From assembly GCF_030684315.1 (NCBI RefSeq), contig NC_081366.1:38230078-38294077 (forward strand): 64,000 bases of DNA, in the 5' to 3' direction. Positions 716 to 56,966 of the stretch are shown here, piece by piece; positions within the stretch are counted from its first letter, which is position 1, and every line of letters starts with the position of its first letter. Under the pieces are notes generated by a model. The model was not told the origin of the DNA, searched no databases, and saw nothing but the letters and a program-made list of their open reading frames with translations. The translations under genes and the position numbers were made by a program. The DNA comes from Stegostoma tigrinum. Its lineage: Eukaryota.

Positions 716-1087
716 CTGAAAGATAAAAGATAATGAGACATTATTTCTGAGTAGAGCTGCTCCAGACCCACTTTCTGTTTTAGAGTATTTGTGAGGTCTC
801 AACATCTATCTGAACATCAGAGGCACATTGCATGTGTGACCAGGGGCTTTTTGTAAAATCAACCAAGAAACACATTGAAACCTAATAACGAAATAACTTA
901 TAGTATACTTCCATGCTAGACATATGAATTACAGAAAATATAGCACAAACAGGAGCCATTTTGTTCATACAGGGGAATGTATGTCACTGGACAGTTATCC
1001 AGAAATCCACGCTATTGCTCAAGGATAATAAAATGTGAGGCTGGATGAACACAGCAGGCCAAGCAGCATCTCAGGAGCACAAAAGCT

Positions 1088-1115
1088 GACGTTTCGGGCC
1101 TAGACCCTTCATCAG
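1088..1115 (-). ncRNA. minimal type I hammerhead ribozyme motif (PLE family A)
   Basis: Reverse complement reads CTGATGA-A-GGGTCTAGGCCC-GAAACGTC. Confidence 0.75.
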
Positions 1116-1339
1116 AGAGGGGGATGGGGGGAGGGAACTGGAATAAATAGGGAGAGAGGGGGAGGCGGACCGAAGATGGAGAGCAAAGAAGATAGGTGGA
1201 GAGGGTGTAGGTGGGGAGGTAGGGAGGGGATAGGTCAGTCCAGGGAAGACGGACAGGTCAAGGAGGTGGGATGAGGTTAGTAGGTAGCTGGGGGTGCGGC
1301 TGGGGGTGGGAGGAAGGGATGGGTGAGAGGAAGAACCGG

Positions 1340-2926
1340 TTAGGGAGGCAGAGACAGGTTGGACTGGTTTTGGGATGCAGTGGGTGGGGGGGAAGAGCTG
1401 GGCTGGTTGTGTGGTGCAGTGGGGGGAGGGGATGAACTGGGCTGGTTTAGGGATGCAGTGGGGGAAGGGGAGATTTTGAAACTGGTGAAGTCCACATTGA
1501 TACCATATGGCTGCAGGGTTCCCAGGCGGAATATGAGTTGCTGTTCCTGCAACCTTCGGGTGGCATCATTGTGGCAGTGCAGGAGGCCCATGATGGACAT
1601 GTCATCAAGAGAATGGGAGGGGGAGTGGAAATGGTTTGCGACTGGGAGGTGCAGTTGTTTGTTGCGAACTGAGCGGAGGTGTTCTGCAAAGCGGTCCCCA
1701 AGCCTCCGCTTGGTTTCCCCAATGTAGAGAAAGCCGCACCGGGTACAGTGGATGCAGTATACCACATTGGCAGATGTGCAGGTGAACCTCTGCTTAATGT
1801 GGAATGTCATCTTGGGGCCTGGGATGGGGGTGAGGGAGGAGGTGTGGGGACAAGTGTAGCATTTCCTGCGGTTGCAGGGGAAGGTGCCGGGTGTGGTGGG
1901 GTTGGAGGGCAGTGTGGAGCGAACAAGGGAGTCACGGAGAGAGTGGTCTCTCCGGAAAGCAGACAGGGGTGGGGATGGAAAAATGTCTTGGGTGGTGGGG
2001 TCGGATTGTAAATGGCGGAAGTGTCGGAGGATAATGCGTTGTATCCGGAGGTTGGTAGGGTGGTGTGTGAGAACGAGGGGGATCCTCTTGGGGCGGTTGT
2101 GGCGGGGGCGGGGTGTGAGGGATGTGTCGCGGGAAATGCGGGAGACGCGGTCAAGGGCGTTCTCAATCACCGTGGGGGGGAAGTTGCGGTCCTTAAAGAA
2201 CTTGGACATCTGGGATGTGCGGGAGTGGAATGTCTTATCGTGGGAGCAGATGCGGCGGAGGCGGAGGAATTGGGAATAGGGGATGGAGTTTTTGCAGGAG
2301 GGTGGGTGGGAGGAGGTGTATTCTAGGTAGCTGTGGGAGTCGGTGGGCTTGAAATGGACATCAGTTACAAGCTGGTTGCCTGAGATGGAGACTGAGAGGT
2401 CCAGGAAGGTGAGGGATGTGCTGGAGATGGCCCAGGTGAACTGAAGGTTGGGGTGGAAGGTGTTGGTGAAGTGGATGAACTGTTCGAGCTCCTCTGGGGA
2501 GCAAGAGGCGGCGCCGATACAGTCATCAATGTACCGGAGGAAGAGGTGGGGTTTGGGGCCTGTGTAGGTGCGGAAGATGGACTGTTCCACGTAACCTACA
2601 AAGAGGCAGGCATAGCTGGGGCCCATGCGGGTGCCCATGGCCACCCCCTTAGTCTGTAGGAAGTGGGAGGAGTCAAAAGAGAAGTTGTTGAGTGTGAGGA
2701 CGAGTTCCGCTAGGCGGATGAGAGTGTCGGTGGAGGGGGCCTGGTCGGGCCTGCGGGACAGGAAGAAGCGGAGGGCCTTGAGGCCATCTCCATGCGGAAT
2801 GCAGGTGTACAGGGACTGGACGTCCATGGTGAATATGAGGTGTTGGGGGCCAGGGAATTGGAAGTCCTGGAGGAGGTGGAGGGCGTGGGTGGTGTCACGG
2901 ACATAGGTGGGGAGTTCCTGGACCAA
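1340..2926 (-). CDS. PLE reverse transcriptase + GIY-YIG endonuclease, N-terminally truncated
   Basis: 528-aa ORF; the listed start is an internal TTG and the frame is open up to the truncation point. Confidence 0.8.
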   Translation of the reverse strand: MVQELPTYVRDTTHALHLLQDFQFPGPQHLIFTMDVQSLYTCIPHGDGLKALRFFLSRRPDQAPSTDTLIRLAELVLTLNNFSFDSSHFLQTKGVAMGTRMGPSYACLFVGYVEQSIFRTYTGPKPHLFLRYIDDCIGAASCSPEELEQFIHFTNTFHPNLQFTWAISSTSLTFLDLSVSISGNQLVTDVHFKPTDSHSYLEYTSSHPPSCKNSIPYSQFLRLRRICSHDKTFHSRTSQMSKFFKDRNFPPTVIENALDRVSRISRDTSLTPRPRHNRPKRIPLVLTHHPTNLRIQRIILRHFRHLQSDPTTQDIFPSPPLSAFRRDHSLRDSLVRSTLPSNPTTPGTFPCNRRKCYTCPHTSSLTPIPGPKMTFHIKQRFTCTSANVVYCIHCTRCGFLYIGETKRRLGDRFAEHLRSVRNKQLHLPVANHFHSPSHSLDDMSIMGLLHCHNDATRRLQEQQLIFRLGTLQPYGINVDFTSFKISPSPTASLNQPSSSPPPTAPHNQPSSSPPPTASQNQSNLSLPP

Positions 2927-3338
2927 AGGGGAGAAAATGGAGTCCAGATAGGTGGAGATGAGTTCGGTGGGGCAGGAGCAGGCTGAGACGATGGGTCGAC
3001 CAGGGCAGGCAGGTTTGTGGATTTTGGGAAGGAGATAGAAACGGGCTGTGCGGGGTTGGGGAACAATGAGGTTGGAGGCTGTGGGTGGGAGGTCCCCTGA
3101 GGTGATGAAGTCATGAATGGGGCTGTGGGTGGGAGGTCCCCTGAGGTGATGAGGTCATGAATGGAACCTGGACCTCCCACCCACAGCCTCCAACCTCATT
3201 GTTCCCCAACCCCGCACGGCCCGTTTCTATCTCCTTCCCAAAATCCACAAACCTGCCTGCCCTGGTCGACCCATCGTCTCAGCCTGCTCCTGCCCCACCG
3301 AACTCATCTCCACCTATCTGGACTCCATTTTCTCCCCT

Positions 3339-4925
3339 TTGGTCCAGGAACTCCCCACCTATGTCCGTGACACCACCCACGCCCTCCACCTCCTCCAGGA
3401 CTTCCAATTCCCTGGCCCCCAACACCTCATATTCACCATGGACGTCCAGTCCCTGTACACCTGCATTCCGCATGGAGATGGCCTCAAGGCCCTCCGCTTC
3501 TTCCTGTCCCGCAGGCCCGACCAGGCCCCCTCCACCGACACTCTCATCCGCCTAGCGGAACTCGTCCTCACACTCAACAACTTCTCTTTTGACTCCTCCC
3601 ACTTCCTACAGACTAAGGGGGTGGCCATGGGCACCCGCATGGGCCCCAGCTATGCCTGCCTCTTTGTAGGTTACGTGGAACAGTCCATCTTCCGCACCTA
3701 CACAGGCCCCAAACCCCACCTCTTCCTCCGGTACATTGATGACTGTATCGGCGCCGCCTCTTGCTCCCCAGAGGAGCTCGAACAGTTCATCCACTTCACC
3801 AACACCTTCCACCCCAACCTTCAGTTCACCTGGGCCATCTCCAGCACATCCCTCACCTTCCTGGACCTCTCAGTCTCCATCTCAGGCAACCAGCTTGTAA
3901 CTGATGTCCATTTCAAGCCCACCGACTCCCACAGCTACCTAGAATACACCTCCTCCCACCCACCCTCCTGCAAAAACTCCATCCCCTATTCCCAATTCCT
4001 CCGCCTCCGCCGCATCTGCTCCCACGATAAGACATTCCACTCCCGCACATCCCAGATGTCCAAGTTCTTTAAGGACCGCAACTTCCCCCCCACGGTGATT
4101 GAGAACGCCCTTGACCGCGTCTCCCGCATTTCCCGCGACACATCCCTCACACCCCGCCCCCGCCACAACCGCCCCAAGAGGATCCCCCTCGTTCTCACAC
4201 ACCACCCTACCAACCTCCGGATACAACGCATTATCCTCCGACACTTCCGCCATTTACAATCCGACCCCACCACCCAAGACATTTTTCCATCCCCACCCCT
4301 GTCTGCTTTCCGGAGAGACCACTCTCTCCGTGACTCCCTTGTTCGCTCCACACTGCCCTCCAACCCCACCACACCCGGCACCTTCCCCTGCAACCGCAGG
4401 AAATGCTACACTTGTCCCCACACCTCCTCCCTCACCCCCATCCCAGGCCCCAAGATGACATTCCACATTAAGCAGAGGTTCACCTGCACATCTGCCAATG
4501 TGGTATACTGCATCCACTGTACCCGGTGCGGCTTTCTCTACATTGGGGAAACCAAGCGGAGGCTTGGGGACCGCTTTGCAGAACACCTCCGCTCAGTTCG
4601 CAACAAACAACTGCACCTCCCAGTCGCAAACCATTTCCACTCCCCCTCCCATTCTCTTGATGACATGTCCATCATGGGCCTCCTGCACTGCCACAATGAT
4701 GCCACCCGAAGGTTGCAGGAACAGCAACTCATATTCCGCCTGGGAACCCTGCAGCCATCTGGTATCAATGTGGACTTCACCAGTTTCAAAATCTCCCCTT
4801 CCCCCACTGCATCCCTAAACCAGCCCAGTTCATCCCCTCCCCCCACTGCACCACACAACCAGCCCAGCTCTTCCCCCCCACCCACTGCATCCCAAAACCA
4901 GTCCAACCTGTCTCTGCCTCCCTAA
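3339..4925 (+). CDS. PLE reverse transcriptase + GIY-YIG endonuclease, N-terminally truncated
   Basis: 528-aa ORF, mirror of 1340-2926; YIDD catalytic motif intact. Confidence 0.8.
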   Translation: MVQELPTYVRDTTHALHLLQDFQFPGPQHLIFTMDVQSLYTCIPHGDGLKALRFFLSRRPDQAPSTDTLIRLAELVLTLNNFSFDSSHFLQTKGVAMGTRMGPSYACLFVGYVEQSIFRTYTGPKPHLFLRYIDDCIGAASCSPEELEQFIHFTNTFHPNLQFTWAISSTSLTFLDLSVSISGNQLVTDVHFKPTDSHSYLEYTSSHPPSCKNSIPYSQFLRLRRICSHDKTFHSRTSQMSKFFKDRNFPPTVIENALDRVSRISRDTSLTPRPRHNRPKRIPLVLTHHPTNLRIQRIILRHFRHLQSDPTTQDIFPSPPLSAFRRDHSLRDSLVRSTLPSNPTTPGTFPCNRRKCYTCPHTSSLTPIPGPKMTFHIKQRFTCTSANVVYCIHCTRCGFLYIGETKRRLGDRFAEHLRSVRNKQLHLPVANHFHSPSHSLDDMSIMGLLHCHNDATRRLQEQQLIFRLGTLQPSGINVDFTSFKISPSPTASLNQPSSSPPPTAPHNQPSSSPPPTASQNQSNLSLPP

Positions 4926-5149
4926 CCGGTTCTTCCTCTCACCCATCCCTTCCTCCCACCCCCAGCCGCACCCCCAGCTACCTACTAACCTCATCCCACC
5001 TCCTTGACCTGTCCGTCTTCCCTGGACTGACCTATCCCCTCCCTACCTCCCCACCTACACCCTCTCCACCTATCTTCTTTGCTCTCCATCTTCGGTCCGC
5101 CTCCCCCTCTCTCCCTATTTATTCCAGTTCCCTCCCCCCATCCCCCTCT

Positions 5150-5177
5150 CTGATGAAGGGTCTAGGCCCGAAACGTC
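5150..5177 (+). ncRNA. minimal type I hammerhead ribozyme motif (PLE family A)
   Basis: CTGATGA core, stem II GGG/CCC, GAAA, palindromic ACGT stem III, GTC cleavage triplet ending at 5177. Confidence 0.75.
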
Positions 5178-7110
5178 AGCTTTTGTGCTCCTGAGATGCT
5201 GCTTGGCCTGCTGTGTTCATCCAGCCTCACATTTTATTATCTTGGAATCTCCAGCATCTGCAGTTCCCATTATCTCTGATACTATTGCTCAAGGATACAG
5301 GTTTGAATCCCACCATGGTCAAGTAGTGAAATTAGAATTCAATAAAAATTCTGGAATTCAAAATTAGCTCAATGGTGTTCATGTCAATTGCCTTAAAAAT
5401 CATCTGGTTCACTAACACCCTTTAGGGAATGAAATCTGCCATCCTTACCTGGTCTGACCTACATATGACTCCACAGCACAGTAATGTGGTTGACTCTGAA
5501 CTACCCTCTGGGCAATAAGGGATGGACAATAAGTGCTGGCTGAGCCAGCAATGAATGATGTGAAATAAAGCTATATCAGTGCTAGAATTTGTATAGTAAA
5601 ATATAATCAAGTTCGGTTTGGGAAAAAGTTTGAACAAGTGCAGGAGCAGATTACAAAATTTAACCCTGCCGAACAAAATTAATGCATAGCTTTACAAAGA
5701 AAAATGGCACCAATAAAAGTTTACCTTCCCTGTATTTTAGGCATATCATAACCCATTGTTTTTAGCATTTTCTACCATGTGAAATTGAAAGGTTGATCAT
5801 ATTACAATTGTTGATTGTTCTGAAGCTATTGCATGCATCATGTGTCTTTCATTGTTATGTAAAAGAAAGACTGGCAACTGTGGAAACAGAGCTCTGTAAA
5901 GCAGAACAACATTTGACTAGGAGCTGTCAAAATCAGAAACTCACTTGGAAATCAATTTAAACATAAGCATAAAACTTATTGGCCTTTCTCTTCCAATAAG
6001 GAGATAATTGTTACTGCAGTATAGATAAGAGATATGCACAGGAGCCAAGCAGAAGTCCCAAAGCGGCTGACTCTGCCTTATAATGGTCAGGAAGTTGAAG
6101 ATTCTGCCTAAAAAAAGGTCCCCAACTCTGAGTTATTGTTGGAGACTTCAAATGGTTCCTGCTCATGTACTTAAATAGTCATGCAGGAAAACCAAGAATA
6201 ATCAAAAGCTGCTCTGATCCCTGCGTAACTACAAAACCACCCCCTACAACTCACCACCGCTCTCTCCCACTGATTAAGTGTTCCCAAACTCCCATAGACA
6301 CTGATACCTGCCCTAGGTCAACCTGTGAGCCCTCCCCCACCCGACCCCTGCTCTGCCACAAGGACCTCACCCAAGTTACTGCCCAGGACCCCTGACAAAA
6401 GAAGGAGACTCACAACCCAATACCACTTGCCCAAAATATACCCCAGCACACAGCCTGACCTAACCGCCAACACACCCAAAAAGATGATCCCCGATGTCCC
6501 GCAATCCGATGCCCCCGATTTGTCACCTCTCCCGACCTGAAGCCCCACCCAAATTTGACCACTAACATTTCTCCCACCAGCTCCTCACCTGACATTGCGC
6601 CTGACATTCCCCTCCTCCTCCTGTCCTAACATCCCCCCAACTTGACCACCAATCTCCATCAGCTCAGACTCAAACCCTGACACCCCGATGTCTATGTTGC
6701 CCCGCTCTACTCTGAAAGGTTTTCCTCCACTATGGTAGGAGAAGCATGGCCAGGAGCCTTCCAGCCAGGAAGTCCCCAGCAAAAGGTGCTGTGATCCCAC
6801 AGTCACTCAACTTTTCTTTGTTTTTGCACAATATGGTGAAAAACGGCATCACTAAAATCCTGTGGGATCCTGCCCTGTTCCCAGCTGACCATGAAAAACT
6901 CATGGAGTTTAATATGTTGGGCACAGTCACCATGCCTCAAATAGCCTTGCCACAACCACTGCTTGGACTCATACTGGCAGCGTGTCATCCAGGACCATGC
7001 AGAGAATTGACAGAGAACCACATCCCAAAGCAAGTCAACGGGAAATGGTGATTTCATTTGTGATTAAAATAATATTTGCAACAATAACTGATATAATACA
7101 CTATCCTTAC

Positions 7111-7268
7111 CTGGTTGGTAGTGGGACCTCCGTAAGAGCCCCTAGGATCATTGCCTGCTTTAATCGTACAAAGGCAACAAATGGCTTCTCCAAAAAATCT
7201 ACTTCACCCACAAGCACATTTGCAGCTTCAGCACCTTCAGGGATCTGCTTCTTGAAAGTATTTTTCAA
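7111..7268 (-). CDS. SLC4 transporter, 5th coding exon
   Basis: 158 nt, ttttag/gtaagg; [52 protein letters not shown](R), the conserved SLC4 N-terminal cytosolic core. Confidence 0.95.
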
Positions 7269-13098: not shown

Positions 13099-13119
13099 TG
13101 ATGGCCTTCCTGATTCACT

Positions 13120-13435: not shown

Positions 13436-13789
13436 TCTTAGGCCCTCACATCACATTTTATTCTGATCACATCAAAACCATGAAATTTCACTTTCAATCA
13501 AAAATTAAGGAATACTGTTGTTCAATATAACTAACAACCTGATAATGAGTTGGTGGGTTGTGAGAATTTGCTGGCATTGCTGGCTATTAGACAGACATAT
13601 AGATGGTCTGGTCTATATCATTTTGCAAGCTCAGGGCGCTGAGGCCAATGATAGTATCCTAGCAATTTCCTCAGCTGAATCAGAGTGTCAGCTAAGAATC
13701 AAGCCTGAGATATTTTGGCTTGTATATCGTAATGTTTAATAGTTATTCATCAGACAATCATACAAGAAAAGTTTCCACGGCAAAATGAA

Positions 13790-15132
13790 GAGATAGTAAG
13801 AACTGCCAATGCTGGAGTCAGAGATAACACAGTGTGGAGCTAGAGGAATACAGCAGGCCAGGCAGCATCAGAGGAGCAGGAAAGTTGACATTTCAGGTCG
13901 GGACCCTTCTTCAGAAATGTGGAGAGGTAAGGGAGCTCAGAAATAAATAGATAGAGGACGGGTGGGATGGGGAGATAGGCGGGATGGTGATAGGTGAGTG
14001 GAGATAGAGAGTGGTGAGGGTTGGTCAGTGAGGTGGGGGGGACAGGTAGGTGGGAGAAAAGAGGGACAGGTTGTGTTAGGCCAAGGAGGTGAGGAAGAGT
14101 GGGAGGGTTAGACATGGGATGAGGCCGGGGGTGGGGAGATTTTGAAACTGGTGAAATCCACATTTAGGCCATCAGGCTGTAAGCTCCCAAGGTGGAATAT
14201 TGGGTGTTGCTCCTCCAGTTTGTGGGTTGTGTCTTTGTGCCACTGGAGGAGGCCCAGGATGGACATGTAACCCAGGGAGAGGGAGGGGGAGTTAAAATGG
14301 TTGGCGACCAGAAGGTGTTGTTGTTTGTCCTGAACAGAATGCAGATGCTCGACAAAATGGTCTCCGAGCCCCTGCTTGATCTCACCGATGTAGAAGACAC
14401 CACATCGGGAGCAGCAGATACAGTAGACCAAGTTGATGGATGTGCAGGTGAGCCCATGTCTGATGTGGAAGGTGTGTTTTGCGCCTTGGATGGAGGTGAG
14501 GGGGGGAGGTGTAGGGGCAGGTGCAGCACTTCCTGCGTTGCAGGGAAGGCGCAAGGGGTGGCGGGGTTAGTGGGGAGTGTGGAGTGGATGAGGGGATCAT
14601 GGAGAGGCTATGAAAGCTTTTGTACAACATCTGCACTCTGTTTGCGACAAACGACAACACCTTTAGGCCACAATCCATTTCGACTCCCCCTCCCACTCCA
14701 TAGGTGACATGTCCATCTTCAGCCTCCTCCAGTATCACAATGACACTACCTGCAAACTGGAGGAGCAGCATCTCATGTTCCACCTCAGGAGCCTACAGCT
14801 CGATGCCCTAAATGTGGATTTCACCAGTTTTAAAATCTCCCCACTCCTAGCCTCATCCCATGACCAACCCGGCTTCTCATCCCCCCTTCTTTGACCTGAC
14901 ACAATCCGCCCCTCCCACCACACTGACCAATCCCCACCACTCCCTACCTGCACTCAACTATCACCATCCTACCTACCGTCCCCAGCCTGACCCCATCTCT
15001 TCCTATTTACTTCTGAGCTCCCTTGCCCTCCCACCATATCTGAAGAAGGGACCTGACCCAAAACATCAACTTTCCTGCTCCCTGATGCTGCCTGTCCTGC
15101 TGTGTTCCTCCTGCTCCACACTGTGTTATCTC
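13790..15132. mobile_element. older inverted pair of PLE 3' fragments (minus arm 13790-14607, plus arm 14608-15132)
   Basis: Both arms carry degenerate GIY-YIG sequence (LVYCICCSRCGVFYIGE; MSIFSLLQYHND) and degenerate hammerhead motifs at about 13886-13914 and 15040-15068. Confidence 0.9.
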
Positions 15133-21327: not shown

Positions 21328-23021
21328 TGCTCAAATAACAAAGTTCACACTTGAACTGAAATGACTTGCTCCTGCAACAAGTCCGAATTACAGCTGAAGT
21401 CTTGTACCTTAAATGCAGTGCCCTAATAATTCTCAGTGGCTTACAATATTATTGAATACAATTCTGACAACAGTGGAGCTTTACCAGTACATCACAGGAA
21501 AAAGCTTGTCCTGTCCAGACTGATGCAGGCTTTGTTACTAAATCATGATATACCACTGCAAAAACAACAGCTTCTCTTCCTGGACCTCTGAATTCTTCAA
21601 AACATCTAACAAATATATTCACAAGATATTCACATAATAAACCATGTCCTTTAATATTTATTTTTGTATAGCACATGGATATATTTTCAGAGATAATATT
21701 TGTAAAACAATATTTTCTGACAAAGCTGAGACCTTAGAATTTTGGTTGTATTTGTCAAGTTTGTTTAAACTAGCTTCCTTCCCAATTAAGATATAGGTAG
21801 ATACTGGGTTCTGTAGGTTTCTGTCAGGTCTTTCCTACAAAGTTTATTAACCAAGTGCACAATTACCACTGGCAAAGTACTTGACCACAAGGGAAAGCGA
21901 ATTAGGGTGCAGCTAACTCTGTCCCACTGTCTGACTCAGAAGTCCCTTAAAATGCATGTTCCAGAAGCACCACCAACCAGTGATTGAAAATGGAAATCTT
22001 CTCTTTGTTCTTTGCAAACACATGGTTTTTCCAATTGAGATCGCCACATGCATTTAACTGAACGTGAACTCTTTTAATCTGTATGGTTGAGTTCCAGACT
22101 AAGCAATTATGGAAATGGCCTATTACCAGTATAGGTATAAGCATAGTAAGCTCTTTGACACCTTTTTAAAATTTGTGTTGGTAGTCTAGGCTTATTTTGG
22201 TCTACACTTAATCTTCATTCTTAGAATTCATGCCTACTGATAATAAGAAACAGAGTCATTCTATAATTTGCACATTTGGGACAGTTAGTTTTATGGTCAT
22301 TAAAACATGTTATTCCTTCAATACCAAAGTGACATTGGCTAGAGTCCAATAAAAGGATTGCAGAGACTAGGTAACAGAGTTGTCTATGTCTGACAGAAAT
22401 TTCTACAAACAAGCAGCTATGTTTACACTGTAAAGAGTATAATGTATATAAAAACAAATTTCATCATACACTGTATTATTATGTAAACAACATTGTAACA
22501 TAGCACATTTTTTACAAAAACTTAAATAAGCGATGTCAGCAAACAAAATAATTTAGTAACTCACCTGATATTCTTTAATGTCACTTCTGATATGATGAAT
22601 CATATTTGGTTTGTTACCCAGCCATTCTCAAGTACAGAGCTGAAGTAATCATTATTCATGTCTGAGGCTAGAGTACGTTACTAAATTATTTAACACTGCA
22701 AGATATCAAATCCAATTTACAATCCGCCAGTATCTGCACTTCAGGGAATGCTGGCAAATCTTTTCTTCTCTCAGACCCATAGTTGGGTATATGAGTGAAG
22801 TAATGCCTCATGCCCCTGCTATGGCATCATCAACTTGGAAACCAATCTGAGAATTTCCTGAAAGTTACGTGTCATAATGTACATTTCCTTCTTCTATTAA
22901 CATGTATGTTCTATAATTTTTAAAAATATTTCGTTATCAAGTGTATTCTCTCTTCTACTGATAGAATAAACTCTTATGGATGCAATTAGACAATATGTTG
23001 CACAAACAGCCAATCTTCATA

Positions 23022-23158
23022 AAAACAACCCAAAGAACAGAGGATGCTGGAAATCAGAAGCAAAAACAGAAATTGCTTGAAAAATTCAGCAGATCTGGAC
23101 CTGAAACATTAATTTTGCTTTCTCTCCACAGATGCTACCAGACCTGCTGACATTTTCT
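23022..23158. mobile_element. miniature inverted PLE-tail element (family B) with 14-bp TSD
   Basis: agccaatcttcata at 23008-23021 and 23159-23172; arms tcagcagatctgg / ccagacctgctga face outward. Confidence 0.75.
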
Positions 23159-23234
23159 AGCCAATCTTCATACCTGAGTTTCGGCACTCAGGAGTTGATA
23201 ATGCCTGTGTAAAATTTGCTGACCGCCAAATTTG

Positions 23235-24253: not shown

Positions 24254-26580
24254 TAATCAGTGATAATGGGAACTGCAGATGCTGGAGAATCCAAGACAAC
24301 AAAATGTGAGGCTGGATGAACACAGCAGGCCCAGCAGCATCTCAGGAGCACAAAAGCTGATGTTTCGGGCCTAGACCCTTCATCAGAGAGGGGGATGGGG
24401 TGAGGGTTCTGGAATAAATAGGGAGAGAGGGGGAGGCGGACCGAAGATGGAGAGAAAAGAAGATAGGTGGAGAGGAGAGTATAGGTGGGGAGGTAGAGAG
24501 GGGATAGGTCAGTCCAGGGAAGATGAACAGGTCAAGGAGGTGGGATGAGGTTAGTAGGTAGGAGATGGAGGTGCGGCTTGGGGTGGGACGAAGGGATGGG
24601 TGAGAGGAAGAACAGGTTAGGGAGGCAGAGACAGGTTGAACTGGTTTTGGGATGCAGTGGGTGGAGGGGACGAGCTGGGCTGGTTGTGTGGTGCAGTGGG
24701 GGGAGGGGACGAACTGGGCTGGTTTTGGGATGCGTTGGGGGAAGGGGAGATTTTGAAGCTGGGTAAGCCAACATTGATACCATTGGGCTGCAGGGTTCCC
24801 AAGTGGAATATGAGTTGCTGTTCCTGCAACCTTCGGGTGGCATCATTGTGGCACTGCAGGAGGCCCATGATGGACATGTTATCTAAAGAATGGGAGGGGG
24901 AGTGGAAATGGTTTGCGACTGGGAGGTGCAGTTGTTTATTGCGAACCGAGCGGAGGTGTTCTGCAAAGCGGTCCCCAAGCCTCTGCTTGGTTTCCCCACT
25001 GTAGAGGAAGCCACACCGGGTTCAATGAATGCAGTATATCACATTGGCAGATGTGCAGGTGAACCTCTGCTTAATATGGAAAGTCATCTTGGGGCCTGGG
25101 ATAGGGGTGAGGGAGGAGGTGTGGGGGCAAGTGTAGCATTTCCTGCGGTTGCAGGGGAAGGTGCCCGGTGTGGTGGGGTTGGAGGGCAGTGTGGAGCGAA
25201 CAAGGGAGTCACGGAGAGAGTGGTCTCTCTGGAAAGCAGACAAGGGTGGGGATGGAAAAATGTCTTGGGTGGTGGGGTCGGATTCTAGATGGCGGAAGTG
25301 TCAGAGGATGATGCGTTGTATCCGGAGGTTGGTGGGGTGGTGTGTGAGAACGAGGGGGATCCTCTTTGGGCGTTTGTGGCGGGGGCGGGGTGTGAGGGAT
25401 GTGTTGCGGGAAATGTGGGAGACGCGATCAAGGGTGTTCTCGACCACTGTGGGGGGAAAGTTGCGGTCCTTGAAGAACTTGGACATCTGGGATGTGCGGG
25501 AGTGGAATGCCTCATCGTGGGAGCAGATGCGGCAGAGGTGGAGGAATTGGGAATAGGGGATGGAATTTTTGCAGGAGGGTGGGTGGGAGGAGGTGTATTC
25601 TAGGCAGCTGTGGGAGTCGGTGGGCTTGAAATGGACATTAGTTACAAGCTGGTTGCCTGAGATGGAGACTGAGAGATCCAGGAAGGTGAGGGATGTGCTG
25701 GAGATGGCCCAGGTGAACTGAAGGTTAGGGTGGAAGGTGTTGGTGAAGTGGATGAACTGTTCGAGCTCCTCTGGGGAGCAAGAGGCGGCGCCGATACAGT
25801 CATCAATGCAACGGAGGAAGAGGTGGGGTTTGGGGCCTGTGTAGGTGCAGAAGAGGGACTGTTCCACGTAACCTACAAAGAGGCAGGCATAGCTGGGTCC
25901 CATGCGGGTGCCCATGGCCACCTCCTTTGTCTGTAGGAAGTGGGAGGAATCGAAAGAGAAGTTGTTGAGGGTGAGGACGAGTTCGGCTAGGCGGATGAGG
26001 GTGTCGGTGGAGGGGGACTGGTTGGGCCTGCGGGACATTAAGAAGCAGAGGGCCTTGAGGCCATCTGCATGCGGAATACAGGTGTTTAGGGACTTGACGT
26101 CCATGGTGAAAATGAGGTGTTGGGGGCCAGGAAATTGGAAGTCCTGGAGGAGGTGGAGGGCGTGGGTGGTGTCACGGATGTAGGTAGGGAGTTCCTGGAC
26201 CAAAGGGGAGAAAATGGAGTCCAGATAGGTGGAGATGAGTTCGGTGGGGCAGGAGCAGGCTGAGACGATGGGTCGACCAGGGCAGGCAAGTTTGTGGATT
26301 TTGGGAAGGAGATAGAAACGGGCCGTGCGGGGTTGGGGAACAATGAGGTTGGAGGCTGTGGGTGGGAGGTCCCCTGAGGTGATGAGGTCATGAATGGTGT
26401 TGGAGATGATGGTTTGGTGCTCGGGTGTGGGGTCATGATCGAGGGGGCGGTAGGAGGTGGTGTCGGAGAGTTGGCGTTTGGCCTCGGCGATGTAGAGGTC
26501 AGTGCGCCATACTACCACTGCGCCACCCTTGTCTGCGGGTTTGATGGTGAGGTTGGGGTTGGAGCGGAGGGAGCGGAGGG
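24254..26580 (-). mobile_element. Penelope-like element family A, 5'-truncated, non-inverted, inactivated
   Basis: ORF 25301-26518 plus downstream fragments; YIDD changed to CIDD and in-frame stops; includes the upstream IKPADKGG motif; TSD ctgtttact at 24245-24253 and 26581-26589; hammerhead variant at 24359-24386. Confidence 0.95.
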
Positions 26581-27690
26581 CTGTTTACTGCCTGTTTTAC
26601 ACTAGGCACTAGTTTGGGAAAGGGTTCAAAATTCATAGGGAAGAAATGTTGGATAGACTATTGGTTCCTAAAGTGACAAAGCTCTGAGACCAGATAAAAT
26701 GCATCGAAGGAAATGAGAAAGAGGTAAGAGAGGGAATTGTGTGGACACTGACCATTTCTTTCAGTCTTCCCTTGGCTCAGGAATGACAAGACTGGAGAAT
26801 TGCACAATTCACATCCTTGTGCAAATAGGATTGTAAAGATAAGCCCAGCAAATAGACCAGTCTGCTGGCGTTTTTAAAAAAGGCTTGCATTTATATTGCG
26901 CCTTTTACAAACAACATCTATTTAAAAAGGGCTTTACAGTGAATTAAGTTTTGTATTGCCATGTAGTCACTGTATTGGAGAGGCACAGAGAGTAGCATCC
27001 CTACCTCAGAGGCCCTGGGTTCAAAGCCCACTTCAGGACTTGATGGCCACAGAACCTGCATTCATAACATAGACGAAACGTTTGAATATTAACTTGTATC
27101 TCCTACTAATAGACCGTGGTAAAAGCAGGGCAGATTTCTGATCAGATCAGCCATGTGATTGCTAGAAGTTGAAACCTCTGTCATAGTTCCAGACCATAAC
27201 ATACGTGTAAAAGTATATCTTGTCAGAGCAACTCAAACCCCATGGGGTCTGGTTGGCTCAGTCGGTTGTTGTAAATCAAACTGGAGTGAATAGAATGGGT
27301 TTGATGCCCATTCCAACTGGGGTGAACACAGGACCTGCCCCCTGTGGTGAAAATTGTGGCAGTGTTGGTCAGACCTTCCTTCAGTCAGAGAACTTGAGAA
27401 GACTCACTGTTTTGGTGCACATCCACTATAAAAAGACAGTGGGATATTACGACAGCAAAGTCACCACTGTCTGTTTTACATCCAATGCAAAAGTTAAAAA
27501 TCCACCCCAAGTTAAACTGTACTTCTTTCAAAGCCAGACATATGTGAAATTAACTACGACATGGCATTAGATATCAAAGCTCATTCTGAAGTTAAATATA
27601 AAATGCTGTACTGGTTCCTGATCCAGAGTCCAAGGAGACAGGTGTCTGATGGAGAAATGACAGGACAAGGAGGCTGACAAGCATGAGAAG

Positions 27691-29033
27691 CAGAGATAAT
27701 GGGAACTGCAGATGCTGGAGAATCCAAGATAACAAGGTGTGAAGCTGGATGAACACAGCAGGCCAAGCAGCATCTCAGGAGTACAAAAGTTGACGTTTCA
27801 GGCCTAGACCCTTCATCAGAAAAGGGGGATGGGGAGAGGGCTCTGAAATAAATAGGGAGAGAGGGGGAGGCGGACCAAAGATGGATAGAGGAGAAGATAG
27901 GTGGAGAGGAGAGTATAGGTGGAGAGCTGGGGAGGGGATAGGTCAGTCCGGGGAGGACAGACAGGTCAAGGAGGTGGGATGAGGTTGGTAGCTGGGAAAT
28001 GGAGGTGCAGCTTGAGGTGGGAGGAGGGGATAGATGAGAGACAGATCGGGTTAGGGAGGCGGGGATGAACTGGGCTGGTTTTGTGATGCAGTGGGGGAGG
28101 GGATGAACTGGGCTGGTTTTGGGATGCGGTGGGGGAAGGGGAGATTTTGAAGCTGGTGAAGTCCACATTGATACCATTGGGCTGCAGGGTTCCCAAGCGG
28201 AATATGAGTTGCTGTTCCTGCAACCTTTGTTGGCATCATTGTGGCACTGCAGGAAGCCCACGATGGACATGTCGAATAAGGAATGGGAGGGGGAGTTAAA
28301 ATGGTTCACGACTGGGAGGTGCAGTTGTTTATTGCGAACCGAGCAGAGGTGTTCTGCGAAGCGGTCCCCAAGCCTCAGATCAACCAAGTGGAGGCTTGCA
28401 GACCGCTTTGCAGAACACCTCTGCTCGGTTTGCAATAAACAGCTGCACCTCCCAGTCGCGAACCATTTTAACTCCCCCTCCCATTCCTTAGACAACATGT
28501 CCATCATGGGCCTCCTGCAGTGCCACAATGATGCCACCAAAGGTTGCAGGAACAGCAACTCATATTCTGCTTGGGAAACCTGCAGCCCAATGGTATCAAT
28601 GTGGACTTCACAGGCTTCAAAATCCCCCACACCCCCACTGCATCCCAAAACCAGCCCAGCTCGTCCCCTCCCCCCACTGCATCACGAAACCAGCCCAGCT
28701 CATCCCCACCTCCCTAACCTGTTCTTCCTCTCACCTATCCCCTCCTCCCATCTCAAGCTGCACCTCCATTTCCCAGCTACCAACCTCATCCCGCCTCCTT
28801 GACCTGTCCGTCCTCCCCGGACTGACCTATCCCCTCCCCACCTATACTCTCCTCTCCACCTATCTTCTCCTCTATCCATCTTCGGTCCGTCGGCCCCTCT
28901 CTCCCTATTTATTTTAGAACCCTCTCCCCATCCCCCTCTCTGATGAAGGGTCTAGGCCCGAAACGTCAGCTTTTGAGCACCTGAGATGCCGCTTGGCCTG
29001 CTGTGTTCATCCAGCTTCACACTTTGTTATCTT
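27691..29033. mobile_element. inverted pair of PLE family A 3' fragments (minus arm to 28376, plus arm from 28382)
   Basis: TSD agcatgagaagcag at 27680-27693 and 29034-29047; hammerhead motifs at 27792-27819 (-) and 28940-28967 (+). Confidence 0.93.
28940..28967 (+). ncRNA. minimal hammerhead ribozyme motif (PLE family A)
   Basis: CTGATGAAGGGTCTAGGCCCGAAACGTC, identical to 5150-5177. Confidence 0.7.
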
Positions 29034-30164
29034 AGCATGAGAAGCAGTTTAGGTCACGACAGATAAATCATAATCAGTCAAATTTGGATAATCTGAAGCT
29101 CCAGGTGTAGCAAAGTTGTCAGCTATTCCCACTGGCAGAATAGGAAATACAGGATGTCTGAGACAAGCTAAGGTTTCAGACTGTTAACTCTGGATTTGCT
29201 AAACTCGTGCATTGTTGTCATATGATCTCACTCACCAATCTGCGAAGAGTTACATCACATCAGAGTGCAAAATCATGGACAGGGATGCAATAATTGCTGT
29301 AAAAGGATCCCATGCACATTCTCAATGCATATTCTCTGAAATGCATTTTTAACCTTGATCAAACCAGACTGTTTTAGTGTGATTTTGCAAATTGTTTTTT
29401 ATTGTTTAATGTACAAATATGTATTGGTGGAAAGCGAAGCAAGGAATGTCATGCTGCTATGGCCTACACCAACATTAATGCTACCCGAAAGCTACCACAG
29501 CCAGTGTCAGGCAAGTCCAAAAGGTTACGTTGCTTTGTGAATGTTAAGATACAACCAGTGTAGTATAAGACTGACAAAACCATTTGGATAACCTCCAGCA
29601 TTTTGGAAATGTGGTCTGGAAATTGGGCAAAATATAACAACAGAAGTAAAGGAAGCATCTGATGATGATCCTGAAGAGTCCAATAAATACACACGTGGTC
29701 AACAGCCTGTTTCCCTGGCTACAGATGGTAACACCTATGAGATAATCCAGGATTTCGCACCATAGCACAGAAACACAGAAAACATGCTTGACTCGATGGC
29801 AGACTCACCACAAGAGAATAAGCTAAGTAGAAAAAGGGCATTGAAATTTTTTCCAGACTTTAACACAGCATTTTTCAATGTCTTTTACTGCATAGGGTGA
29901 GGTCACAGTAAGGCAAGTAAAAATAAAGGCATTTTTCCACATACTTGCTGCATTACCAAGTTCTCATTTTTATTAAGCATAGAGCACAACTGTAGGTAAA
30001 TAAGGTTACACGAAGGCTTTCTCAGCTATCTCGAAGCTCCAATTAACCCAAATTTGCGGGCAGGATCCCTGTAATCATAATTTTACTTCTTGTAAAGAAG
30101 TAGTGACAGTGCCTTAATGGATGTTTTGGAGAAAGCCAGGAGAGGCAGAAGTGATAGTCATGTC

Positions 30165-35965: not shown

Positions 35966-36429
35966 CCATTAAATGTAAAATTTCAAAATCCAGCCAAATA
36001 CTACCTTATTAGGAAACTGGATTATAATGGAAGCGTCAGTGTACTTAGTACTGACTCCTCACCAACGCATTTTAGATTAAGCTCCACACTTCTACAGCTT
36101 GGTCCAGACAAAAATCAGCTGAATTCTCTGACAACTTCCCACTACATCAAAAGAGCCCTGGCAAAATGGAAGTCATTGGCAGTTGGATGGAGCGTGAGTG
36201 ATACCTTTTGTAAAAGTTTTTGTGCTTATTGTTGGAAACAAAGTTAGCTTTCCACAATTAACTTACTGACACCTCGGGAATCAAACCAGCATCTAAGAGG
36301 CACAAATCTAGAATGTGATTAGATAAATTGGTAGGTTCAAGAAATTAGGCAGATTCTGATCTTGCTCATCTCACATCTTAGGATGAAATTAAAAAGCTAA
36401 ACTAATTTGGATGGAATTTGAAGTGAACA

Positions 36430-36625
36430 AAAACAAGAAACACTTTGTAAACTCAGCTGGTCTGGCAGCACCTGTAGAATGTAAGAATGCACTTAGAGTC
36501 CAGTATGTCTTTTCTTCCTAACAATACCAGACTCAAAATATTAACTTTCTCTCTGCATGTCAGACCTGCTGGGGTTTCTCCAGCATTGTTGCAGATTGTC
36601 AGCATCCACAATATTTTGTTTTCAG
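36430..36625. mobile_element. degenerate miniature inverted PLE-tail element (family B)
   Basis: aactcagctggtctggcagca ... cagacctgctggggtttctccagca arms facing outward. Confidence 0.55.
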
Positions 36626-39862: not shown

Positions 39863-39906
39863 TTCATTGAGGCTGTGAAACAAGTTTAACAATAAATAAA
39901 AAATAC

Positions 39907-42188: not shown

Positions 42189-43124
42189 CTGTTGAAAACA
42201 AGGAAAGTTAAAATGGGATAACTTTTCACAAGAGTAGAACCTCATTGTCTCAAATATTTGTAAATGTTTATTTCTTCTCACTAACAAGTCATGAATGTTT
42301 TAATTGAAGTATAAGTCTTTATTCACATTAACTCCAAAAAGTTTGGCAGTTTAACCTATTTCTGGATCAGCACTGGATCGTATTTTACAGAATATCTGTT
42401 TGTAAGAGAAAGATAATTGACCAACTGATTTAAACCGAAATTACAATACATCTTCATCCCAAAATTGAAAGTTCAGCCATTTTTGTCGCTAATGCAAATT
42501 TCAAGTCGAAAAAACTGTTTACAATCTATTGAAAGAAAGAGCGAGTGTAGTTGTAACATTAATACCTAACAGCTTACAGATAAGGTTAATATAATTAACT
42601 CAAGCAGGAAACTGGACAAAGAAATTACAGAATATAAGATCTTAAAATGCATTTGTAACTCAAATTTAGTTACAGTAGCTCCTCATGTAAAAAACCAAAC
42701 AGCAAGGGGAAGGGAGGATCGTTATTTTTCTTTGTGCGAAATGCCAAGTGTTCTACAAAGTCATCGAGACTGCAAAATATCCATTCGAAAGTTAAAAATG
42801 GGGTGGGATGTATTAAATCTGCCTAAGAGACAGGAAACAGTGAAAAACCATTCTCTTAACTGACACAAGCTTTCCCGCGCAACCGGTTACCAGGATACAA
42901 GCAACAAAAAGTGTCACTAAATCCCACATTCTCAGCCCAGAACATCTCGCCTGGCCCTACTTTTAACACCACAGGACAGAGGAAACATTATTTCAAAGAC
43001 CATTAATTCAACGCCAAGGCCGCCAAGAAATATTGGCGCCAAATTCGCCCCCGAACCCTCCCGACCAGCTTGCACAATTTTTAAAAAGGGGGAAAAGTCA
43101 GTATAAACTGCTTACGTTACTTAC

Positions 43125-43924: not shown

Positions 43925-45200
43925 AGTAATCAGAGACAACACAGCGTAGAGCTGGAGGAACAAAGCAGGCCAGGCAGCATCAGAGGAGCGGGAAGTTGAC
44001 GTTTCGGGTCGGGATCCTTCTTCTGAAATAGGGCGGGGAAAGGGAAAGCCGTTCCCTCGCTGTTTGGTCTTTTTCCATAAAGAACTACTGTAACTAAATT
44101 TGAGTTACAATTGCAGGCAGGGCGTGGTGGGGATTTGTCAGTGAGGGGGGTGGGGCGGATCGTTTGGAGAGATAGTAAGACCTGCCGATGCTGGAGTCTG
44201 AGCTAACACAGTGTAGAAGTGGATGAACACAGCAGGCCAGGCAGCGTCAGAGGAGCAGGAATGTTGCTTGGTCAGCTGTGTTCATCTAGCACCACACTTT
44301 GTTATCTCTGTTTCAGGTCAGAACCTTTTTTTCAGAAAATGAGAAATGAAAGAACACGGACAGGTTGGGTCAGGTCCCGGAAGCGTCAATGAGAAGGAGG
44401 GTTGGTCATAGGATGAGGCCTGGGATGGGGAGATATTGAAAGTGGTGAAATCCACATTTAGGCCATTGGGAGGTGTGGCATTCAACCTCTGGCGAGATAG
44501 AGATCAGTTCCCAGAAAACCACAGTACCACCCCTTTAATAGGTTTGATAACAAAACTGAGGTTCAATCTGAGAGAACAGAATGCAGCAAGTTCAGAAAGA
44601 GGCAGGTTAGAGTGAGTGAGAGGAATGGGTAAATTGAAGTGGTTGAAGCTATGCAGGCACAATCAATAAAAAGATTCTGGTGTTGAGGTGCCAGTGTTGG
44701 ACTGGGATGGACAAAGTTAGAAGTCTCTCAACATCAGGTCATAGTCCAACAGGTTAATTTAAAATCACAAGCTTTCGGAGTGCTGTTCCTTCATCAGGTG
44801 AAGTCTGATGAAAAGCTAAGGGAGGCTAGAAGGCCAAAAGGAAGAATCTAGTTGGAAAGAATACTGGAGACAGATTAAAAGGTTTCACTCAAGACTCGGT
44901 GTGAGAGAGATGTTCGCCACTGAAGTGGGTATGGAACTGGAGATGATGGAAGAGTTCAGCATCATTCCAATTTTGAAATTCACTCAGGTACAGGGGAAGA
45001 CTTGCTTAGAACAGATCATTCAAGGTACTGTGTCTACAGGGCAAGCAGTAGGAATAGAAGCAGGGATGTGTCAGAGGTAAGTGAAGGGAGATCTGGAGGT
45101 TGGTACCCAGGATTTCTTGGATTTGCAATCCTTCATATGTATGAGGAAAGGGGGTTGAAATGAGCGTTGAAATGAGACTTGTGACCAGGACAGCTTTAAA
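43925..45200 (-). mobile_element. nested cluster of degenerate PLE fragments upstream of the DCK promoter
   Basis: Family A tail and hammerhead at about 43997-44025, mini inverted element 44168-44310, DKGG-region remnant near 44490-44560, family C insert 44680-44812. Confidence 0.7.
44769..44797 (-). ncRNA. minimal hammerhead motif of a different PLE family (C)
   Basis: Reverse complement CTGATGA-A-GGAACAGCACTCC-GAAAGCTT with palindromic AAGCTT stem III. Confidence 0.55.
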
Positions 45201-46580: not shown

Positions 46581-48029
46581 AGTGAGATGTAAAAGTAAGT
46601 ATTGGGTAATACCTGATTGCTTTCTATTTGTCTTAAATTCAATGAAGGTGAATCAGGGAGAAAAACAAATGGAAATCCCATTGGACACAAGATCTTCAGG
46701 GTGAGCATTTCTGGGTGAGAAGTGGTGGTTGATTAATCACCAATACAAAAGTAATATACCATGCCACTGGAAATCTGAAATAAAACCAGATAATGCTGGA
46801 AATGCTCAACAACAGAGTTAAAGTTTTAGTCAAAGTTTTTCACTCCCCAGACACTGCCTGAAATGCTGAGCAATTCCAATATTTTCTGTTTTCAAATTCT
46901 TTTAAACAGAACATTTTTTTCTTCTCTTATCCCATTACCACTTCCTTTGGCCTTATCTCATGAATTCTTTTGTAATTTAATCTTTCATGTCTTCCACCCT
47001 CTCACATATTTCCCAATTTTTCTACTTACATGGCCTGTTTCTAGCCACATGACGACAAGACTATAACCCCTCCCCTCCTTTTCTTGCTAAACTTCTTATA
47101 TTTCTTGGTCACAATGAATGGCCACAAACTTGAAACCTTAACTCTGGTTCTTTCTTTACAGTTGCTTTTTGACCCGCTGAGTTTTTCCAGCAACTTCTGT
47201 TTTTGTTCTTGTCCTGTACTTAGTCATTTTGATCTTGAAGTGATTGCAATGGGTACTTCAACATTACTTGCTATAGTGTCTTCAATTGCATCAAGCTTTG
47301 TTCTGTTGCCTTCTGCCAAAAAAACTAGCAGCAGAACTTTAAGCCCCCTCAATCCTTGTCTTTGGAGCTCATGGACCCAGTATGAACCCACCCTCCATTA
47401 ATCTGCTTCTAGCTCTTTTGCCCAAATCACAATCATTTCTATTATGCTCTGCGGACTTTGTGTGCTGCTCCTTATATTATTACTATTACTATGAGATATT
47501 TTGCATGTAAAAGCTTTTGTGTACATGCATATTGATGTTGATCACTTCCATTACCAGAGATAAATTAGGTCTCAAAAGGAACATTCCTCGTGTACATTTT
47601 CCTAATTTTCAAGGATTTTTTCCTCATTATCTACTGGTTATCATCATCTGAAACTATTTAATTTTGTAAAGGAATATCTTTAGAAGTCTCCAACTGGCTA
47701 ACAAAGGCAAAGCAAGTGACACTTCAAAACAAATATATAAATTTAGATATAATCATAGATTTTATTCACCTGGCAAGCAAAGTTTGTGGCATGATTTTTT
47801 TTGTGGATTTTGGCAACAAGTTGAGGATTATCAAATCAGCCATGATATCATTGAATGGCAGAGCAGACTCAATTGGCCAAATGGCCTACTTCAGCTGCAA
47901 CATCTTACAATCAATCACAATGTTGTTAGATCACATTGCAGATCTCAACTGGTTCCAATGTTGCTCCATCACAGCTGATTTTACCTACCATGTTGTCATG
48001 GAAGGAAGAAATGACATCGAACAGCGCTG

Positions 48030-48415
48030 GTGGGCACAAAAACATAGGTTGCTGGAAAAGCTCAGCAGGTCTAGCAGCGTCTGTGAAGAAAAAATCAGAT
48101 TAATGTTTTGGGTCCGTTGACCCTTCCTTAGAACAGCTGGTGGCAGCTGATTTTCTCCGGTATAGGCTGTTATTATACTGTGTCTGCTCATGTGGTTGAA
48201 TGCCATAGTAAAACTGATGAAAACAATATATATAGAAAGCAGAGTTAACGTTTTGACTCTGGTAATTCTTCATCAAAACTCCAAGTCAGAGTCGCCAAAC
48301 TCAAAATGTTAACTCTGCTTTTTCTTCAGTGATGCTGCCAGACCTGCTGAGTTTTGCCAGCAATTTCTGTTTCTTTTTCAGATCTCTAGCATCTGCAGTT
48401 GTTTGTTTTATTTTA
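48030..48415. mobile_element. PLE family B tails in inverted arrangement
   Basis: Minus tail 48030-48135, inverted gagttaacgttttga / tcaaaatgttaactc core 48242-48315, plus tail to 48415. Confidence 0.7.
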
Positions 48416-51400: not shown

Positions 51401-51524
51401 AAATCACAAAAATATCGTCTCCAGTATTTGTACCCACATCCTGGTAATGAATAAAAGTCTCAAAAGAAAATGATATAATTGACATTGGAATGGAGGAAGG
51501 AGAAGAGAGAGGGCCATGAGCTCT

Positions 51525-53919: not shown

Positions 53920-54010
53920 ATGTCTAGTTCAGAAACTGATGGATTTGTTGTCCGGGTCCGTGGATTACCCTGGTCATCTGCTGCTGAGGAAGTGTTACGC
54001 TTTTTTTCTG
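53920..54010 (+). CDS. HNRNPH1: hnRNP H, first coding exon (exon starts 53881)
   Basis: attcag acceptor at 53880, ATG at 53920; [30 protein letters not shown] (qRRM1 RGLPW), donor gtatgt. Confidence 0.95.
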
Positions 54011-55399: not shown

Positions 55400-56260
55400 A
55401 GTAAAAGGTGACTATTTGAGAAGTTAGAGTGAATTGCTAAGCAAGGTTAGATCATATGACATACAGGGAGAACAAGCCCTTTGGATACAAAACTGGCTCA
55501 GGTAGAAGACAGAGGGTGATGGTGGTTAAGGGTTGCATTTCAGACTGGAGGCCTGTGACCAGTGGTATGCCAGAAGGATCGATGCTGGGTCCCCTGCTTT
55601 TTGTCATTTATATAAATGACTTGGATGTGAATGTAGGTGGTTTAATTAGTAAATCTGCTGATGACACCAAAATTAGTGATCTGGTGAACAATGAAGAAGG
55701 TTACCTCAGTACAATAGAATCATGATCAGATGAGCTATTGGCCCAAGCAGTGGCAGATGCAGTCTAATTTAGATAAATGAGAGGTGCTGCATTTTGCAAT
55801 GGCAAATCGGGGCAGGACTTGTACACTTAATGGGAAAGCCCTGGAGAGTGTTGCTAAACAAAAACCTTGGAGTGCAGGTACAAAGTTCCTTGAAAGTGGA
55901 ATTGCAGGTAGAAAGGATAGTGAAAAAGGCAATTGGTATGGTTTTTTTATTGGTCAATCTGTTGAGTATAGAAGTTGGGAGGCCATGTTCCAGATGGTTA
56001 GGCAGCTTTCAGAATAGCGTGTGCAGTTTGGGTCTCCCTGCTATAGGAAGAATGTTGTGAAACTTAAAAGGGTTCAGAAAGGATTTACAAGAATATTGCC
56101 ACGACTGAAGGGTTTGAGCTGTAGGGAGAGGCTGTGGCTATTTTCCCTAGTGTCTGAGGCTGGGGGGGTGACCTTAGAGGATTATAACATTGTGGGGCAT
56201 GGTGAATAGGCAAGGTTCCACCCCTGGTTGGTGGAGTCTAAAACTAGAGGGCAGAGTTTT
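55400..56260 (+). mobile_element. CR1/HER1-like LINE fragment in an HNRNPH1 intron
   Basis: WRPVTSGMPEGSMLGPLLFVIYINDLD...SADDTK RT motifs in ORF 55456-55725, frameshifted downstream. Confidence 0.9.
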
Positions 56261-56446
56261 AATTGCTGAGATAGCCAAGCTCTGAAAACTTATGATTTCT
56301 GGGATCTTTGGGGTCCTTGTCTCTATTAAATGAAGGGAGTGCCAAAATAGTGTTTTGTGTAATGTCAGAAATTGAATGAACTCTATTTCAGAAAATATGA
56401 GGAGAGCAGTGTCCAAAAGATAGAAATCAAGGTTACTAACAAGTCA

Positions 56447-56600
56447 GGCCGAGCAGGAAGGCTGACATTTTGGGCCTAGAAGAAGGGTCTAGGACCAAAA
56501 CGTCAGACTTCCTGCTCCTCTGGTGCTTGGCCTGCTGTGTTCATCCAGCTCTACACCTTGTTATCTCATTCTTCAGCATCTGCAGTTCCTACTATCTCTG
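56447..56600. mobile_element. miniature inverted PLE-tail element (family A) with 12-bp TSD
   Basis: actaacaagtca at 56435-56446 and 56601-56612; inversion centre lies inside the hammerhead motif. Confidence 0.8.
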
Positions 56601-56966
56601 ACTAACAAGTCACATTTGTAATGATTCGAAATTCACTTTACAGGCTGAGGTAAGTTTCTTTTTGGCAAAATGTCTATCGTTGGACAATTGACTGTCTCTA
56701 TGGTTACTTTGTCTAACTATATATCTACCAGAAGGCCTAGGTTCAAGTTCCACTTACTCCATAGGTGTATCATGATGTGACTGATTTTAAAAGGAATGAT
56801 TTGACTTGATATATGTATCCTTATGAAGCAACTTGTTGATTTTAATTTTGGATGTATTGCTGGAACTCCTGGTTTAAGTTATAGGTTAGTTATAAAATCT
56901 CATTGGGAATTCAGTATTTTTGTGTGATTATATCTGTAATGTTTTAACTTGACTTTTACATTTCAG

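Follow-up and report, generated by a model that had tools for sequence, protein, structure and literature searches.

One long and one short end: inverted pairs of a Penelope-like retrotransposon in Stegostoma tigrinum suggest twin priming on a single RNA

What reaction leaves two copies of a retrotransposon in inverted orientation inside a single target-site duplication (TSD), with both 3' ends pointing outward and a complete tail on only one of them? The question is raised by one 64,000-nt stretch (positions 38,230,078-38,294,077; hereafter the window) of the 3.2-Gb Stegostoma tigrinum genome, in which an earlier note had named nine inverted pairs of Penelope-like elements (PLEs), here assigned to families A and B. 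All nine sites proved to be tail-out inverted pairs (9/9), and in loci sampled across the genome nearly every pair of family A combines one long with one short end. We consider it probable that these pairs arise by twin target-primed reverse transcription on one RNA, likely by a protein dimer whose two subunits sit on the sites of the short and the long end, with a target cut staggered by 13-16 nt.

In the following, S denotes the short and L the long end; LL and SS pairs have both ends alike, while SL and LS pairs are mixed. Element coordinates are relative to S = 0 (about 5243 in the window), with L near +34, and labels such as L110 or L133 refer to sampled genome loci outside the window. 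The tally of LL and SS pairs rests on sampled loci, about 1.8 Mb of the genome in total. The unselected sample covers 764 kb (700 kb plus the window) and the young set 80 of the 150 listed young reverse transcriptase (RT) matches, at 10 kb each; further sets comprise 60 pattern-anchored loci and 10 stretches chosen in search of exceptional cases or unusual neighbours. When the genome itself was searched with the terminus as a DNA query, no matches came back, common words being skipped. Statements about the published sources refer to excerpts of them.

The end positions of family A are bimodal, falling at S and L (146 matches in the 764 kb). Among the 80 young loci, 45 hold inverted pairs: 21 SL, 19 LS, no LL, no SS and five with one odd end (Fisher p 7.6e-12). 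Mixed ends are thus found in 40 of the 40 young pairs with both ends classifiable. Over all sets, 153 pairs have both ends in the terminal range; 142 are mixed directly and eight more on inspection (three alignment over-extensions, four diverged tails read as L and one extra internal piece), which gives 150/153. Under the strict definition of a young pair, with at least 93% identity, a found anchor and a TSD of at least 11 bp, 71 family A pairs were retained, and all 71 are mixed with a single TSD round the whole unit. The proposal that two defined sites are used, one per target strand, is thereby supported; of the outcomes named beforehand as speaking against it, random short-arm ends and a separate TSD for each arm, neither occurred.

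The less regular cases show how far the rule extends. All seven odd ends lie upstream of S and are partnered with L (one further case was dropped, being cut by a locus edge). Five L..L candidates among the first 100 listed tail matches are two separate insertions each, and the false LL or intermediate calls made where lenient BLAST scoring ran past some ends (L152, L196, B5) were set right by eye. In four compound insertions (L243:3484-3839, L248:56-441, L250:3042-3469 and L133:3522-4282) an extra internal piece restarts at L or copies the start of the open reading frame (ORF); the outer ends obey the S/L rule in the first three, and both are S in L133. At L249:1014-1111, the sole family A pair left over that looks like L/L, an L tail has its middle segment inverted, perhaps through a hairpin-mediated template switch. 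Family B is older and was modelled at its roughly 150-nt terminus only, which by eye appears to resemble that of family A. Here 20 of 24 pairs are mixed in a first set that includes window 23022 (p 0.005), and 10 of 12 in a second, from which one more candidate was dropped, its left arm being family A; with a TSD of at least 11 bp, 12 of 12 are mixed.

Family A is very abundant, with 61,098 RT candidates, 39,373 exact matches to its 30-nt tail motif and 13,967 matches to its S-end pattern in the genome, and long palindromes are hard to assemble. Both facts would suit chance neighbours, later rearrangement or an assembly artefact. We find this scarcely credible: the unselected 764 kb contain 38 tail-out pairs against one tail-in neighbour, a density of about 50 pairs per Mb, and most of these pairs span only 150-300 nt. 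A single TSD round the unit, asymmetric ends and arms that have diverged with age likewise argue against it.

Solo copies show that neither site is favoured as such. The 80 young loci include 35 solos (17 S, 17 L and one other), and 82 young solos divide into 41 S and 41 L, with TSDs that are similar for both and shorter than those of pairs. If ends were chosen independently, 50% of the pairs should be LL or SS; yet the pairs are mixed although the solos stand at 41:41. Two independent RNAs on a symmetric dimer would equally give LL and SS half the time. The solos also qualify two statements of the earlier note. Pairs had been called the dominant integration mode, an overstatement, for they make up about half of the young insertions (45 of the 80 young loci; 16 pairs against 15 unpaired arms in unselected blocks at an identity of at least 90%); in the same blocks, 38 pairs stand against 70 unpaired arms when all ages are counted. 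A fixed order of the two sites finds no support, as solos are equally S and L, either arm of a pair can be the longer, and the two sides carry the same target motif.

Within the window, the claimed TSDs hold at four sites: 16 bp at 1024-5281, 14 bp at 23022-23158, 14 bp at 27691-29033 and an exact 12 bp at 56447-56600. At 13790, 44168, 36430, 46770 and 48030 no TSD survives, the best exact match being 4-6 bp. Four family A short arms stop at an internal TTATC(T), as had been described (1024, 15132, 29033 and 44310), and a fifth, at 56447, stops about 53 nt further in. The 1024-5281 palindrome, with its S end left and its L end right, has arms at 1019-3095 and 3170-5246 that are 2077 nt long and 99.9% identical. 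The paired and solo copies in the window are as follows (EN, endonuclease; UTR, untranslated region).

1012..1027, plus strand: left TSD copy of 16 bp, counting the priming microhomology at its two ends, an exact match to 5282-5297
1024..3164, minus strand: S arm of the young family A palindrome, its RT-EN ORF truncated at the 5' side
3121-3164: re-copied piece of 44 nt with which the S arm ends on its 5' side, a template jump immediately preceding the central joint
3170..5281, plus strand: L arm, with an RT + GIY-YIG ORF truncated at the 5' side (to 4925), then the 3' UTR
About 5242-5243 to near 5279: end of the L arm, from the S site through a tail of 33-40 nt to the L site
5282..5297, plus strand: right TSD copy
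13789..15132: old family A pair with L on the left and S on the right, TSD gone
16516: solo copy with an S end
23008..23172: family B pair, L left and short end right, 14-bp TSD
24256..26583, minus strand: solo family A copy with an L end and a 9-bp TSD (read by eye), a counter-example to dominance of the paired form
27680..29047: family A pair in a 14-bp TSD, with L on the left and S on the right
36425..36620: degraded family B pair with S on the left and L on the right, without TSD
44168..44310: old short family A pair with L on the left and S on the right, without TSD
46745..46892: degraded family B pair without TSD, S/S by model score and L/S by eye
48033..48415: degraded family B pair with S on the left, L on the right and about 140 nt between the arms, without TSD
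56435..56612: family A pair in a 12-bp TSD, with L on the right and an odd short end (about -53) on the left

The target sites carry marks of the initiating steps. The TSD measures 13-16 bp in 69 of the 71 strict pairs. Outside its ends, T stands at +3 in 43/71 cases on the S side and 43/71 on the L side (86/142), and at +7 in 50/71 and 54/71 (104/142). This motif is seen on the S and L sides alike, whatever the TSD length, a pattern pointing to two nicks made independently and symmetrically, 13-16 nt apart. A weaker echo of it, equally spaced, is seen in solos with a TSD of at least 8 bp (n = 42), where T stands at 0.55 for offsets 17 and 22. Furthermore, element and TSD overlap at the primer end by a mean of 1.5 nt (S) and 1.9 nt (L), compared with a permutation null of 0.78 and 0.74, a level reached by 0 of 2000 simulations. 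The earlier note had spoken of priming or cleavage sites; this microhomology, together with the two RT start sites found in vitro (PMC11167929), favours priming over cleavage.

Cleavage is central to the view in PMC8557442 that the ends are resolved by the endonuclease: both cDNAs start beyond L, or a duplex intermediate is formed, and the element's own EN then cuts one end back to S and the other to L. The element sequence just after L resembles the target motif, and the D. virilis EN requires the tail to cleave its own sequence (as cited in PMC11167929), both of which speak for trimming. On inspection, however, no target-like motif is present at S on either strand, the ends are spread over several nt and share microhomology with the target, which priming would predict, and in vitro start sites of the anole element match genomic ends (PMC11167929). 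We judge trimming to be quite improbable.

The two arms of a pair differ in reach in either direction. The S arm extends more than 100 nt further 5' in 18/94 pairs and the L arm in 18/94; at a threshold of 5 nt the counts are 38 and 36, and in 20/94 the 5' ends lie within 5 nt of each other. This bears on self-priming or fold-back, in which a strand copies itself or the second target end copies the DNA of the first arm (antisense self-priming is proposed in PMC3846280). Such copying would account for arms that were near-identical at insertion and for centres that are near-perfect palindromes, including the 20 pairs just mentioned. It requires the S arm to be contained in the L arm; the 18 pairs in which S is the longer by more than 100 nt contradict all models that copy one arm from the other, the self-priming of PMC3846280 among them, and in some pairs the arm lengths differ by more than 2 kb. 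Self-priming is largely refuted for family A, and we give it very little credence.

The arms appear to share a source. Their lengths are coupled (rho 0.53, n = 43), and the partners of arms of at least 2.3 kb exceed 200 nt in 27/28 cases, compared with 14/86 unselected arms. At polymorphic sites, the arms of one insertion agree in 231 of 280 comparisons (41 pairs), against 16% across insertions. Of the central joints, 40/77 have 0-4 nt of microhomology (mean 1.65, null 0.64) and 37/77 contain 1-53 inserted nt, often re-copied element sequence. Most insertions are tiny, and the 5' ends of family A cluster at -99 to -86, directly ahead of the hammerhead-like core, at -65 and at -58 to -55 (window about 5144-5190). 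The 150-300 nt palindromes that result from these clustered ends look like miniature inverted-repeat transposable elements (MITEs).

Twin priming could also draw on two RNAs of one source locus, or on a tandem transcript that offers two junctions, an asymmetric complex then assigning one subunit to S and the other to L. Overlapping arms of 2-3 kb would then need no strand displacement, and the shared alleles would fit a single active source locus. Moreover, among arms ending at -63 to -67, a putative ribozyme cut, the partner goes further 5' in 4/8, which is impossible from one pre-cleaved RNA. This model demands an extra asymmetry, because the targets are symmetric and solos use both sites equally, and alone it leaves the coupled arm lengths and the pairing of odd ends with L unexplained. 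We regard it as unlikely.

For twin priming on one RNA, the order of events could be as follows. Two subunits would first bind S and L, both ATTATCT-containing sites, on a single RNA. Each endonuclease would nick 5' of an nnTnnTTT-like motif, as the TSDs and the flank motif suggest, leaving two 3' overhangs of 13-16 nt, and each overhang would then prime, aided by 1-3 nt of pairing, with S and L interchangeable between the strands. Both cDNAs would proceed toward the 5' end of the RNA, the second displacing the first, and stop independently; their 3' ends may finally be joined through microhomology or short template jumps. If only one primer were extended, the product would be a solo S or L copy, whose TSD is trimmed and shorter. 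The parts that we infer are the dimer, the single RNA and the strand displacement.

Several observations weigh against this account. For family A, it is read from the genome sequence. The coupling of arm lengths was set against samples of different age, a possible confound, and in 49/280 allele comparisons the arms disagree. A single source locus would account for the shared alleles no less than a single RNA molecule, with gene conversion between the arms as a further possibility, and the partners that outreach arms ending at -63 to -67 speak against a pre-cleaved single RNA. No stable RNA fold was found around S and L, where folding is no better than in shuffles (z about 0), and the S-L spacing is loose, at 26-52 nt. 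Three of the 153 pairs (L133, L136 and L249), all without TSD, look SS or LL. Family B is noisier than family A, with 30/36 mixed in total, four SS and two LL or ambiguous. In PMC11167929, the start site was no different between strands, pairing within one target molecule being untested there, which is compatible with the account; initiation there also proceeds without target homology, unlike the weak microhomology seen here.

To identify family A, we relied on a full-length copy at L110, whose unit measures 3693 nt and carries an intact ORF (L110:5782-9084, 1100 aa). This single ORF joins an RT to a C-terminal GIY-YIG-type EN, with DKG at 463, YIDD at 704 and VVY..YIG at 960-975, and further contains VVYCIHCTRCGFLYIG followed by RFAEH and a later His. 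Its match to RVT_1 is weak (E 2e-5, below the cutoff); homologs of the protein have PF00078 in many cases and PF01541 in some. The closest named homolog is from Chiloscyllium punctatum (78% identical), and no sequence relatives were found in the PDB at E<=1. Partial tandem pseudo-long terminal repeats (pLTRs), inverted copies and a 30-40 nt tail occur at L110, L125, L129, L137 and L163, in line with an EN+ PLE. A CX4CxxC linker, CNRRKCYTC, lies at residue 923, and a CX2-5CxxC linker between RT and EN is diagnostic of Neptune/Nematis (PMC8557442). Judged by these motifs, family A is a Neptune/Nematis-type Penelope-like retrotransposon; Poseidon, considered as a label, was ruled out, since the Penelope/Poseidon clade lacks the linker. 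Neptune is preferred to Nematis because Neptune and Poseidon are the vertebrate clades (bioRxiv 10.64898/2026.07.22.740005).

Around the terminus, ATTATCT is present at both S and L, 33 nt apart, and the first ATG of family A follows at +73, downstream of L. The target-like sequence just after L (L110:5744-5760; window 5280-5288) could favour insertion into the element's own junction and tandem formation. A putative hammerhead-like core, CTGATGA..GAAAC GTC, was matched by pattern at -93 to -66 (window 5152-5179); Rfam gave no hammerhead match at E<=1 and nothing beyond hairpin-type noise at the palindrome centre. We also considered ribozyme-cleaved RNA as the template. There is a peak at the predicted cut at -65 (8 arms), but the clusters at -99 to -86 and -58 to -55 are larger, the cut lies inside a palindromic 4-mer and partner arms often extend further 5'; no claim is made for it. 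In the N-terminal part of the L110 ORF, at residues about 240-300, there is a tandem 8-residue repeat whose length varies among intact copies.

We compared family A with the systems described for other elements. Canonical EN+ PLE insertions (Craig et al. 2021, PMC8557442; Arkhipova et al. 2013, PMC3846280) are likewise 5'-truncated, form pLTRs from partial tandems, and have a head-to-head inverted copy within one TSD; their 30-40 bp tail is often confined to one end. More specifically, PMC8557442 describes an adjacent inverted, 5'-truncated copy often tailed at one end only, and PMC3846280 head-to-head pLTRs inside a TSD with the tail on one of them. In these accounts the tail is 'optional' or 'often' present and ascribed to EN resolution, and the inversion to self-priming; in family A exactly one tail is present, as a near absolute rule, and the arm lengths contradict self-priming. 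Rotifer TSDs measure 8-10 bp in these accounts, compared with 13-16 bp in family A.

The Poseidon protein of Anolis carolinensis (Frangieh et al. 2024, PMC11167929) nicks and extends both strands in vitro, is predicted to form a dimer and starts RT at two internal sites, one on each side of the tail, that follow a hammerhead motif; S and L of family A, which follow its putative hammerhead-like core, would be their counterparts. It differs in belonging to another clade without the CX2-5CxxC linker, in having its start sites inside the ORF, whereas the first ATG of family A follows L, and in preferring ATT and, as reported, priming without homology. In the excerpted text, neither inverted pairs nor the two strands of a single insertion are connected with the two start sites.

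In twin priming by L1, both target strands prime on one RNA, which leaves an inversion inside one TSD and cDNAs joined by microhomology. In L1, the internal site at which the second primer anneals is random, and the two arms cover separate stretches of the element; here the sites are fixed, about 35 nt apart, and the same sequence is copied twice into palindromes.

The layout and the two start sites are thus already known. The earlier note cited an optional tail in invertebrate Penelope elements, but understated what is in print, namely inverted copies tailed at one end only (PMC8557442, PMC3846280) and the two start sites of a vertebrate PLE (PMC11167929). Near-absolute exclusion of like ends and twin priming of PLEs were not found in the literature searched. 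The same holds for the symmetric arm-length test, for a stagger of 13-16 nt accompanied by the flank motif and for the extension to a Neptune-type element, although older papers may say more.

The origin of inverted, tailed PLE insertions is called unresolved in the excerpts of PMC8557442 and PMC11167929, and this genome offers young events by the thousand, by which a loose description is sharpened into a rule. For the in vitro assay that already exists, the predictions are one S and one L end on every target extended on both strands, nicks staggered by 13-16 nt, a T-rich motif in the flanks and arms from the same RNA; intact natural ORFs make direct testing possible. It is conceivable, at slightly less than an even chance in our estimation, that PLEs generally integrate by programmed twin priming, with a dimer on two fixed sites of one RNA, a staggered double-strand cut and two first-strand cDNAs made at once, and that one active family wrote on the order of 100,000 palindromes here. 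If so, the tail, the inverted pLTR and the TSD would be three marks of one reaction without a classical second-strand step. For repeat annotation, short PLE pairs are easily mistaken for MITEs.

Three further features of the window lie apart from the PLE pairs. Inverted repeats of 46 nt, 1.4 kb apart (42648-42693 and 44070-44115), are unrelated to the PLE terminus and are possibly the ends of a DNA transposon. Inverted repeats of 47 nt, 2.3 kb apart (30213-30259 and 32535-32581), are probably two copies of another dispersed repeat. The segment 51740-52300 is CpG-rich, does not look like a repeat and could be a host promoter or first exon.

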